In this document: piece after piece, positions 6,734 through 8,508 of the stretch
Position numbering within the stretch: position 1 is the stretch's first letter
Layout: every line of letters starts with the position of its first letter
Origin: Escherichia phage 899
Sequence record: PV533660.1
Direction: 5' to 3' (one strand)
DNA: 33,804 nucleotides
Made by a program: the position numbers and the translations under genes
Notes under the pieces: generated by a model
What the model was told of the DNA's origin: nothing
What the model saw: only the letters and a program-made list of their open reading frames with translations
Database searches by the model: none

Positions 6734-6762
6734 GTCCGCTATGTGCCAGAAGCGGACGTTGC
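6734..6762. repeat. Hairpin-containing repeat, copy 1 (GTCCGCT-loop-AGCGGAC-GTTGC)
   Basis: GTCCGCT (6734-6740) and AGCGGAC (6751-6757) are reverse complements around loop ATGTGCCAGA; near-identical element recurs at 8479-8508. Confidence 0.5.
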
Positions 6763-6941
6763 GGGACGTCAGATATCTAAAAAAACTAATGGTCCGCTTG
6801 GATAGATACTTACACAGGATGCAATAAAGAGTTTCTATTTCTTTGTGGTAGCAAACTTTGATTTCTGAAGGATAATACCTCCAATAAGTTGAAATCACAT
6901 ATATCGCTAAAGACTCTATACAACAACCAAGAGAGACCGCA

Positions 6942-8327
6942 ATGGATAGTGTCAGTAGTGTTGAGCGTTTAAGAACAAAAGCTTTTTATCAGTTGCTTGT
7001 GGATAGGCTTGGAACTGAGGCCTGGGCTGCTCGCAAAGCTGCATATTTCAAGCGCATAAGAGAGAAGGAGGCTAAGTTTAACATCAATCTGCCGATAGAG
7101 CCCCAGCTCTTCATACCAGCAGAAGATGACATCGACTGGTACATTCTGGCGTCGTATCTGTCTCATGATTTTCCATATAGTGATGCTACTTACAGCAGCA
7201 GACGTATCTACCCCTATGCTATGGCCATCGGAGCTGTTGCAGACCAGCTTCGCAAAGTCCCATACGTCGATGATGTTCTGGACAAAATGCTAGCAAATAA
7301 CAATAAACCAGAAACTCAAATTTTTGAGCTGCTGACGGCATCGTTCTACCTAAAGAACGGCTATGAGGTTGCCTTCATCCCAGAAAGCAGCATTGTTTGG
7401 CCCGATGGAAAGACCAAAAAATCACCGGATATGCTCGTCAAGTTAGGTGATCTGGAGTTCTACGTCGAGTGCAAAAGGTCGGATAAGCAAACCAAGTACT
7501 CAAAGACAGAAGAGCAAGCCTGGGCCAACATCTGGCATCAATTGAGCCAACATATGCTCAAAGTCGCACCATGGAACATTGTCGATATAATTTTCCATGA
7601 GCAGGTCGCCAGTGTGACTCCGGCAGACGTTATTAAAGCGGTGAATCTAGCCATTAAAGGGGGGACGGGAAAAGCTAATGAAGGTTCAATCAGTGTGGGA
7701 ATACGAGCCATCGACAAATTAGGTCTCAGACGTCACTACAGAAAATTTTCAGTCAGAGCCAATAGCCCACAGCATGAATTGCTGGTATTTGGGGATCTAG
7801 ATAGCAATGAGAAACGAAGTATCTCGACTATCGCTCAGAGAGTTATTCGTCCTGGCACCAATAACGATATTCTCAACATTTTTGTAGAGGATGTTGCAAA
7901 GTGCGTTGGAGCTCAGTGGTGCTGCGATCATGAGATTTCTCTTGGCCTCAGATCCAAGCATTTCAAGAGCTTGCTCAATGATGGAGTCATGCAGATTCCC
8001 CCTGATCGTGCTGGCGTGGTGCATATTTGGTATGAGACTTGCGAAGGCATAGATATTGAAGAACTACGTAGGGATAAAAACATGGAGCATATCTCGGCCT
8101 ACGATGCCTCTAAAACAACCGTGTTGGGTGCTTTCCTGCATGCCGTTAATTATTACCCATTAGAGGACAACTATGAGTGGGCTGAGACTGTTCAAGACTT
8201 TGCCCGTGTCCCGGATTTGATGGGGCTCTTCCTTAGACAGCCATTGATGCTTACATCTGACTCGACGCGTGGGGTCGAAGGTGTCACACATTGGGAGCAA
8301 GATAAGACCGCAAAAAGCATGCGTTGA
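6942..8327 (+). CDS. Hypothetical cargo protein with PD-(D/E)xK-like nuclease motif
   Basis: 461-aa ORF with upstream purine-rich RBS (GAGAGA); visibly lower GC than backbone; translation contains KSPDMLVKLGDLEFYVECKR (P162-D163 ... E176-x-K178, nt 7425-7475); no P2 counterpart at this locus. Confidence 0.7.
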   Translation: MDSVSSVERLRTKAFYQLLVDRLGTEAWAARKAAYFKRIREKEAKFNINLPIEPQLFIPAEDDIDWYILASYLSHDFPYSDATYSSRRIYPYAMAIGAVADQLRKVPYVDDVLDKMLANNNKPETQIFELLTASFYLKNGYEVAFIPESSIVWPDGKTKKSPDMLVKLGDLEFYVECKRSDKQTKYSKTEEQAWANIWHQLSQHMLKVAPWNIVDIIFHEQVASVTPADVIKAVNLAIKGGTGKANEGSISVGIRAIDKLGLRRHYRKFSVRANSPQHELLVFGDLDSNEKRSISTIAQRVIRPGTNNDILNIFVEDVAKCVGAQWCCDHEISLGLRSKHFKSLLNDGVMQIPPDRAGVVHIWYETCEGIDIEELRRDKNMEHISAYDASKTTVLGAFLHAVNYYPLEDNYEWAETVQDFARVPDLMGLFLRQPLMLTSDSTRGVEGVTHWEQDKTAKSMR

Positions 8328-8437
8328 AAGTGGCTGGAATATGGCGATACTGGGAACATAACTATTCACCGCGTTTCATAACCCACTCTCGGCTGATTAA
8401 CACACGTTATCGTTGGGGGAAAGGACCAATTCCCTAC

Positions 8438-8508
8438 GTCCGCTCCTCGCTCTCAGCGGACCTTCAGCTCAGTGATATCGTCCGCTCTGTGCCATGAGCG
8501 GACGTTGC
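8438..8508. repeat. Two tandem hairpins with the same stem (GTCCGCT/AGCGGAC); second is copy 2 of the 6734-6762 repeat
   Basis: Hairpin A: GTCCGCT (8438-8444), loop CCTCGCTCTC, AGCGGAC (8455-8461). Hairpin B: CGTCCGCTC (8479-8487), loop TGTGCCAT, GAGCGGACG (8496-8504), then TTGC; shares TGTGCCA loop core and AGCGGACGTTGC with the 6734-6762 copy. Confidence 0.5.

Follow-up and report, generated by a model that had tools for sequence, protein, structure and literature searches.

Palindromic sites at the edges of exchangeable genes in the Z/fun hotspot of P2-like phages: candidate recombination sites associated with a small tyrosine recombinase

The hotspots of P2-like phages are a main source of newly discovered anti-phage systems. 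The literature on the P2 hotspots describes exchange there as fast and of unknown mechanism, with a speculation on cos ends and homologous recombination (Rousset et al. 2022, PMC9122126); according to a 2026 study in Nucleic Acids Research (PMC13586616), transposable elements are almost absent from P2-like hotspots and homologous recombination hardly explains exchange with unrelated elements, such as plasmids. The locus considered here is a group of hairpin-forming repeats around two cargo genes of Escherichia phage 899 (PV533660.1). The whole stretch of 33,804 nucleotides (nt) that was analysed, hereafter the window, has 100% identity over the query to Yersinia phage GMG73 (OP880301.3, 33,804 bp, without annotation), a P2-like Peduovirus, and the name GMG73 stands for the window sequence in the comparisons between loci. 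The hairpins are probably double-stranded core-type recombinase sites that bound mobile cassettes, of a family served by a tyrosine recombinase of 200 amino acids (aa), a reading of sequence comparisons that is held with moderate confidence.

Paired sites at the cassette borders

The repeats lie between the tail genes G and FI, that is, in the Z/fun hotspot of P2-like phages, a known variable locus where P2 itself has fun(Z); with variable cargo between conserved gpG and gpFI genes in a P2-like genome, the window belongs to this class of loci. Four sites are present (Table 1), which fall into two types according to their centres, GTGCCA in the L-type sites (6734, 8480) and TCGCTC in the R-type sites (8438, 9915). 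Read from left to right, L, cargo 1 and R are followed, after 18 nt, by L, cargo 2 and R, which gives two cassettes, and the two middle copies, M1 and M2, form an inverted R+L doublet with a start-to-start distance of 42 nt. An earlier note, made from the letters of the window, had described imperfect direct repeats at 6734-6762 and 8479-8508 around a 461-aa open reading frame (ORF), with a third hairpin of the same stem at 8438-8461. The third hairpin is present as stated, the first repeat is correctly placed and the second begins one base later, at 8480; the two share 26 of 29 positions (90%). They do bracket the ORF (6942-8327), but the copy at 8480 belongs to the next cassette, the site pair of cargo gene 1 being L (6734) and M1 (8438), which are mutually inverted. 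The degenerate fourth copy at 9915-9938 and the doublet of the middle copies had been overlooked.

A chance origin had been judged unlikely in the same note, as is borne out by counting: GTCCGCT-N10-AGCGGAC, with at most one mismatch, has three matches in the window against 0.02 expected from dinucleotide-preserving shuffles, and none of 100 shuffles reaches three. The remainder of the 33.8-kb genome holds only looser matches (2-4 mismatches, unrelated loops) that do not rise above shuffle level. The L site is the final conserved backbone element ahead of cargo 1 and the R site the first one past the cargo. These outer sites mirror each other, as TGTCAGATT after R is the reverse complement of AATCTGACA before the first copy, positions 6725-6760 and 9912-9947 are 81% complementary across 36 nt, and alignment of the left flank with the reverse complement of the right flank scores 49, compared with 18.7 +/- 3.8 for shuffles. 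Both outer boundaries are also doublets in which the outer member has decayed, the left one consisting of L and the degenerate copy at 6699..6722. Pairing of 6705-6711 (TGGCACA) with the L loop as a pseudoknot was considered and dropped, this relic inverted copy being the better explanation.

Table 1. Positions of the sites, cargo genes and conserved neighbours in the window
Feature	Position	Strand	Sequence or description	Basis or remark
gpG, tail fibre assembly gene	6145..6669	+	left conserved backbone; homologous to P2 G	Pfam Caudo_TAP, E 1e-33
Degenerate inverted site copy	6699..6722 (approximate)		loop TATGGCACAG, reverse complement of the L-type loop	local alignment of the M1-M2 doublet with the reverse-complemented left flank
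L site in full	6725..6760	+	outer flank AATCTGACA, GTCCGCT, ATGTGCCAGA, AGCGGAC, GTT; central GTGCCA	
Copy 1 (L)	6734-6762 (stem to stem 6734-6757)	+	GTCCGCT ATGTGCCAGA AGCGGAC GTTGC	direct reading
Cargo gene 1, 461 aa	6942..8327	+		weak AHJR-like nuclease match, below threshold
M1	8438..8461	+	GTCCGCT CCTCGCTCTC AGCGGAC; R-type, central TCGCTC	right end of cassette 1
M1-M2 doublet spacer	8462..8479		18 nt, CTTCAGCTCAGTGATATC	
M2	8480..8508 (through GTT: 8480..8506)	+	GTCCGCT CTGTGCCATG AGCGGAC GTTGC; L-type	left end of cassette 2
Cargo gene 2, 348 aa	8607..9653	+	DUF3800	
R	9915..9947	+	GCCTGCT TCTCGCTCAA AGCAGAC (9915-9938, degenerate) and outer flank TGTCAGATT; central TCGCTC	inverted relative to L
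Degenerate L-type relic	9957..9980 (approximate)		42 nt past R start; right boundary doublet	alignment of the M1-M2 doublet to the right flank
Rho-independent terminator	10008..10035	+	GGCGAGCGAATTGCCCGCC, then TTTTCTTT; upstream of the pF promoter	terminator scan
gpFI, tail sheath gene	10135..11325	+	right conserved backbone; homologous to P2 FI	Pfam Phage_sheath_1, E 1e-33

The suggestion that the hairpins mark cassette boundaries is upheld by alignment across related loci. From 80 IMG/VR loci fetched by gpG the G-FI region, 0.8-4.7 kb long, was delimited in 54, and P2, Wphi, L-413C and vB_YpM_46 were added. Regardless of the cargo or its strand, an L site directly follows CCTAATCTGACA at the left junction of every distinct region, and in most of them an R site, with a 5' arm that is sometimes decayed, directly precedes TGTCAGATTTGA at the right junction. 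When GMG73 is compared with the 46 other distinct regions, homology ends at 6755-6762 and resumes at 9911-9929, so that the edges of unrelated cargo coincide with the hairpins in all 47; with all pairs taken together, the left breakpoints mostly lie between -16 and +10 nt relative to the 3' end of L, the right ones mostly between -10 and +14 nt relative to the start of R. Multi-gene hotspots have internal sites between their genes, four of them, GMG73 included, with full R+L doublets at exactly the 42-nt period that also recurs in L005, L025, L076, L212-L214 and the plasmid locus L089; a spacer similar to CTTCAGCTCAGTGATATC, namely CTTCAGCTCAGT, is found in L089 and L212-L214. Since cargo genes occur on either strand within the L-to-R units, the placement of the sites is independent of transcriptional direction.

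In the 26 and 25 unique cassettes compared, the conserved unit is AAN-GTCCGCT-N10-AGCGGAC-NTT. Conservation reaches 80-100% in the centres GTGCCA and TCGCTC and 60-90% in the cargo-side arm and the NTT/AAN, and the next base is random, conservation being lost 3 nt past the inner arm. The centres, which would be the loops of the hairpins, are better conserved than the inner arms, and this strong conservation fits a crossover region in which partner sites need to match, not a hairpin loop. The consensus GTCCGCTCT GTGCCA AGAGCGGAC can be read as 9-6-9, and the sites have the core-type anatomy of tyrosine-recombinase substrates, with two inverted arms and a short asymmetric centre. Fragments resembling decayed half-sites are also seen inside the cassettes, namely GCGGGAC-GTCAGAT just past L (6758-6777), a lone GTCCGCT (6792-6798), and TTGCGGACAGAG and CTACTCTGACAGACATCTATTTG (9770-9800, 9849-9871); they may be scars of earlier recombination events.

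As to the surroundings, in an empty hotspot (L041, IMGVR_UViG_2537561933_000018, 8520-8600) the stop codon of G directly abuts a rho-independent terminator followed by the pF activator site, and L, R and their outer flanks of about 65 nt are all absent; because of this arrangement, the scaffold that carries the sites is itself an insert relative to a minimal backbone. In the window the terminator scan picks 10008-10022 plus its T-run, and the element at 10008-10035, rather than the hairpins, likely terminates the V operon and the cargo genes. Searches of both cargo proteins with PADLOC and NCBIfam gave no usable match; because of their location in the hotspot both genes are candidate uncharacterised anti-phage genes. 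In four loci (L018, L042, L009, L012) another small inverted repeat, AACAT-N6-ATGTTAAT, stands at the start of unrelated cassettes, only a few nt past the L site.

Cassettes, sites and a recombinase gene in other contexts

The identical two-cassette locus is present in 36 complete E. coli genomes, and among complete E. coli genomes cassette 2 is found only there, alongside cassette 1. Cassette 1 also occurs alone. In the P2-like prophage L086 its right end reads GTCCGCT CCTCGCTCCA AGCAGAC TGTCAG, the counterparts in GMG73 being GTCCGCT CCTCGCTCTC AGCGGAC for M1 and GCCTGCT TCTCGCTCAA AGCAGAC TGTCAG for R; the 5' half of the L086 site is identical to that of M1, and the whole corresponds to the left half of M1 joined to the backbone half of R, as expected from an exchange inside CTCGCTC. 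The two genomes look like a natural before-and-after pair, which would lend indirect support to strand exchange. In a traJ/trbJ/trbL island outside P2 (L085), cassette 1 recurs with 99.6% identity over 1731 nt and keeps the L site, an R-type site and part of the outer flanks; this copy abuts an insertion sequence, IS3, is found in three E. coli strains and has no P2 genes nearby. Likewise, the 449-aa cassette of phage vB_YpM_46 has a match of 98.9% identity over 1961 nt in an E. coli chromosomal array, extending from the first base of L to inside R. The search for the hairpin at cassette junctions elsewhere, which the earlier note had proposed, thus found it both at the internal junctions of multi-cassette hotspots and at the ends of the same cassettes outside P2.

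The sites themselves range further. A composite query matched 454 plasmids (Enterobacter 133, Klebsiella 120, Pantoea 88, others), mostly through the doublet, at 82-87% identity and in up to seven places per plasmid; the examples read were from C. freundii, Pantoea and Yersinia massiliensis, the last with a whole mini-cassette that includes an ORF of 66 aa. The exact L pattern GTCCGCTNNGTGCCANNAGCGGAC occurs in at least 120 stretches among species-representative genomes, and the matches listed are mostly metagenome-assembled genomes (MAGs) of Hyphomicrobiales, together with Pantoea, Klebsiella, Leclercia, Citrobacter and others. The motif spans Alpha- and Gammaproteobacteria, with an identical GTGCCA centre in Alphaproteobacteria, and in the Hyphomicrobiales stretches a second hairpin of the same stem lies about 44 nt upstream of the L pattern. 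In several of these MAG loci (L093, L103, L112, L154, L193, others) each genome holds many copies of the same palindromic site, ATGTCCGCT-N10-AGCGGACAT, which frequently follow one another in tandem about every 44 nt and have alternating loops TTACCCCCGA, TTGGGTCAAA and TTGTGCCAAT and a conserved GTGCRGYGCA spacer; the copy number appears high, as in an expansion of the site family resembling repetitive extragenic palindromic (REP) elements, and the family has no Rfam match. In E. coli the doublet is low-copy, with 1-3 places in each of 1116 of 5426 genomes.

Three E. coli contexts outside P2, in Nissle 1917, WCHEC035123 and AF51, were picked solely by their match to the doublet, and each has an array of L and R sites and doublets together with a 200-aa 'site-specific integrase'. 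This protein, of which the Nissle copy is WP_001305361.1, matches the Phage_integrase family (PF00589, E 5e-19). Against models of Xer proteins, invertases and integron integrases its scores are weak and below threshold (XerC 50 bits and XerD 32 bits, with cut-offs of about 330), and a PDB search found no sequence relative. It has at least 8000 homologues, the best 120 of which, at 76-96% identity, come from Enterobacterales, Alteromonadales and others and bear generic names only. A survey of 5426 complete E. coli genomes found the gene in 904 (about 17%), CFT073 (NC_004431.1:270983-271693) and ATCC 25922 among them, and it lies inside the G-FI hotspot in five of the 54 delimited P2-like loci, a sixth having a remnant. 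The hotspot copies in L030, L032, L036, L039 and L040 align only to residue 189 of 200 and are not followed by an L-type half-site; they may be truncated and inactive. Literature searches, with Nilsson et al. 2004 outside their scope, returned no description of these sites or of the 200-aa recombinase. In the recent hotspot papers there is no mention of hairpins, repeats or a recombinase at the locus, and a preprint reports a 'DNA invertase' often encoded in one P2 hotspot, which could be this protein or another.

In related loci the gene is associated with the sites. In all 17 contexts read in which the homologue reaches 84% identity or more, CAGGGCTGC-AACA-GCAGCCC stands after the stop codon, joined to a sequence like TGTGCCA-NN-AGCGGAC-RTT; this is a GC hairpin that runs into an L site with a substituted left arm, and a homologue at 81% has a degenerate copy of the element. 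Most contexts also have an R-type variant (GTCCRCT CCTCGCTCAT AAGGGAC) upstream of the start of the gene, and because an R-type variant stands before it and an L-type half-site after it, the recombinase gene occupies the position of the doublet's spacer. The genes just past the gene-proximal L site vary between contexts. The same arrangement is kept around alphaproteobacterial homologues at 52-57% identity (two loci); around homologues at 60-66% the architecture persists and the site has diverged to C(C/T)GGCCA-NN-AGC.GAC. Full sites, for which the chance expectation is about 0.03 per 10 kb, occur within 5 kb in seven of eight metagenome loci chosen by a homologue of at least 90% identity, nearly all in the polarity of the gene, and in 20 of 23 viral loci chosen by one of at least 83%. 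None of ten loci with homologues at 68% identity has full sites nearby, and no site arrays were found around homologues at 60-68%; the link to GTCCGCT-type arrays is limited to a gammaproteobacterial group at 83-100% identity and an alphaproteobacterial clade.

The conserved 5' leader of the recombinase gene contains a hairpin (ACTCAAATCTCC ... GGAGATTTGAGT; L212 2290-2345, also L213, L131, L203, L039 and L223) that would sequester the Shine-Dalgarno sequence, and the leader of an alphaproteobacterial homologue (L194) has an analogous one, GCTCCTCCTCC ... GGAGGAGC; these hairpins suggest translational control of the recombinase. In Idiomarina sp. X4 (L221 10001-20337, CP025000.1) a homologue at 81% identity and an L-type half-site are followed by a cluster with a two-component system and an eptA-like phosphoethanolamine transferase, and opposed R-type sites at 17511 and 20314 bracket three further genes; given this gene content, the cargo is not limited to defence genes.

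Proposed mechanism and competing explanations

The anatomy of the sites, their coincidence with cassette edges, the sharing of cassettes across contexts and their linkage to a recombinase gene point to a role as recombination sites. Each hairpin would correspond to a core-type site of about 30 bp, with two inverted arms of 7-9 bp, AAN and NTT outside them and an asymmetric centre, and the enzyme would presumably recognise and cleave such sites, with crossover in the central 6-8 bp, and act in trans on a phage that lacks the gene. L and R face each other around each cargo, and successive cassettes are linked by R, 18 nt and L. An exchange of L with L or of R with R, in direct orientation, would release a circle in which one cargo is joined to one doublet. 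By reversal of this reaction the circle could enter any L or R site, and repeated excision and insertion would yield arrays in which cargo and doublets alternate. The Z/fun hotspot would then serve as a landing pad at which cassettes replace one another, accumulate or disappear, and from which they pass to and from plasmids, islands and other prophages. More broadly, and only tentatively, there may exist a previously unrecognised integron-like cassette system in Alpha- and Gammaproteobacteria, in which a 200-aa recombinase encoded between R- and L-type sites mobilises genes with bipartite palindromic ends among P2-like hotspots, other prophages, plasmids, islands resembling integrative and conjugative elements (ICEs) and chromosomes; the cargo moved would be accessory genes, probably with anti-phage functions.

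Several observations weigh against the recombinase-site reading. The link between enzyme and sites is associative, only 904 of the 5426 complete E. coli genomes carry the gene, and GMG73 has no copy of it, so that any activity on this phage would need to be supplied by the host in trans. Among contexts of close homologues, the ICE-like L215-L218 have no full site within 10 kb and the Providencia loci L223-L226 at most one; conversely, the site-bearing L085 and the plasmid loci L089-L091 have no recombinase nearby. The protein, of 200 aa, is without the usual N-terminal core-binding domain, and no close relative with a solved structure exists. With 10 nt between them the 7-bp arms stand further apart than the usual 6-8 bp, and the 9-6-9 reading depends on arm positions that are only partly conserved. 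Moreover, homologous recombination might manage with the 24-70 bp that are shared, no dedicated enzyme being required.

This last point is the basis of the main rival explanation, in which the sites and doublets are portable homology only, that is, linkers of 24-70 bp used by RecA or a phage recombinase during co-infection or co-induction. Sites conserved at every junction are what such linkers would require, unequal crossing-over between boundary doublets alone would give stacked cassettes with R+L doublets, and the absence of the recombinase from GMG73 and most P2-like loci would pose no difficulty. The explanation is nevertheless unlikely, as it leaves unexplained why the central 6-7 nt are the best conserved part and identical across bacterial classes, why an L-type half-site follows the recombinase gene in every close-homologue context read, usually with an R-type variant before it, and why the geometry of the doublet is a constant 42 nt. 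Furthermore, a length of 24 bp is at or below the minimum for efficient RecA-dependent exchange in E. coli.

Two other explanations are weaker. The R+L doublet could be a selfish repeat, resembling REP elements or miniature inverted-repeat transposable elements and possibly derived from a recombinase element, that inserts between genes and has colonised the hotspot but does not move cargo. Its presence beside ordinary metabolic genes on the 454 plasmids, the many and sometimes tandem copies in Hyphomicrobiales MAGs and the location of the recombinase gene at the spacer position agree with this, which is all the same improbable in view of the low copy number in E. coli, of identical cassettes that end precisely at the sites in unrelated contexts, and of the break of P2-genome homology at the sites in all 47 loci, which is unlike random colonisation. 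The proviso of the earlier note, that the motif might be a common host repeat unrelated to cargo boundaries, applies by half: the motif is widespread beyond P2, but it is tied to cassette edges and to the recombinase gene. Least probable of all, to the point of being hardly credible, is a role at the RNA level, in which the hairpins act on transcripts from the late V operon and the individual cargo genes by terminating, insulating or stabilising them. The sites are indeed intergenic and palindromic, some stem positions show compensatory changes (e.g., Wphi GTCCAC..GTGGGC), and the doublet, folded as single-stranded DNA, takes the form of a single extended, imperfect hairpin at -18 to -21 kcal/mol (z from -4.0 to -4.6). 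The fold of a single site, however, is weak, at -7.7 and -6.0 kcal/mol (z of -1.8 and -0.7), the sites flank genes of either strand, their loops are more conserved than their stems, and Rfam at gathering score has no match in the window or in ten related loci. Nor do they look like rho-independent terminators: as the earlier note had remarked, no T-run follows any of the four sites, and the terminator scan picks none of them, in contrast to the canonical terminator downstream. An asymmetry of mispairs, G.T 39 against A.C 14 in the outside-to-cargo frame, was considered as a clue to the folding strand and set aside as uninterpretable, because most of the signal comes from one fixed backbone base and shared ancestry confounds the comparison.

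If the recombinase-site reading is true, portable sites of 30-70 bp and a small trans-acting recombinase carried by about 17% of complete E. coli genomes would explain the swapping and stacking of cassettes and their traffic between different kinds of mobile element; the broader cassette system, if it exists, would provide the mechanism so far lacking for the fast turnover of the Z/fun defence hotspot. The sites would also provide a sequence signature by which cassettes can be delimited, and hence new defence genes found, and the compact pair of recombinase and site might be of use in genome engineering.

Likeness to known cassette systems and repeats

Of the known systems, integrons share several features with the one proposed here. 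In both, cassettes of one or a few genes are parted by imperfect palindromes of about 66 bp, the gene of a tyrosine recombinase is adjoined by a special half-canonical site (compare attI), and the cargo is enriched in accessory or defence-like genes; the doublet, once folded, closely recalls a folded attC in its length, its imperfect pairing with mismatches at the centres and its apical loop. The recombinase, however, has 200 aa against about 320 in IntI, and an IntI-type integrase was rejected, the TIGR02249 model giving 15.9 bits against a cut-off of 265. The attC core motifs RYYYAAC ... GTTRRRY are likewise absent, since the arms are GTCCGCT/AGCGGAC, the doublet ends are ..CCCTAC|GTCCGCT and AGCGGAC|GTTGCTT, and the flank after L varies between ATT, GTT and CTT, followed by non-purines. 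Unlike in integrons, each junction consists of two separate palindromic sites with different centres, the recombinase gene sits inside the doublet position instead of being divergent from the array, and the arrays are found in phage genomes, plasmids and islands, most of them without the enzyme.

The pdif modules of Acinetobacter, which are served by XerC/XerD, are also discrete units edged by short inverted palindromic recombinase sites and common to unrelated replicons, and the geometry of about 11-6-11, counting the conserved flanks of the alphaproteobacterial copies, resembles that of dif and pdif. The site sequence is not known to be related to dif/pdif; the enzyme is a dedicated 200-aa recombinase and not the housekeeping XerC/XerD, and neighbouring cassettes are joined by a doublet instead of one common site. 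With the conserved junction sequences of phage modular evolution (Susskind-Botstein linkers, boundary sequences in lambdoid phages) the sites share the presence of a short conserved sequence at module junctions where exchange takes place; they differ in being structured palindromes with defined ends that occur far beyond phages and are linked to a specific recombinase gene.

REP elements, their paired forms (REPINs) and the REP-associated tyrosine transposases (RAYTs) offer a further parallel, with inverted doublets of short palindromes, an enzyme gene flanked by the same repeats and, in Hyphomicrobiales, many copies. For E. coli this identity was rejected, given 1-3 places per genome, the lack of a conserved GTAG head and a PF00589 enzyme in place of an HUH Y1 transposase, and the present repeats, unlike REP elements, bound exchangeable genes. 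The sites may also bear some resemblance to the terminal repeats of Tn3, to the res half-sites of resolvases (TGTCYG) and to ERIC elements. To go by its title, a 2004 study by Nilsson et al. may have anticipated part of the idea, which in that case would be 20 years old. The finding would belong among the tyrosine-recombinase gene-cassette systems and is not categorically new.

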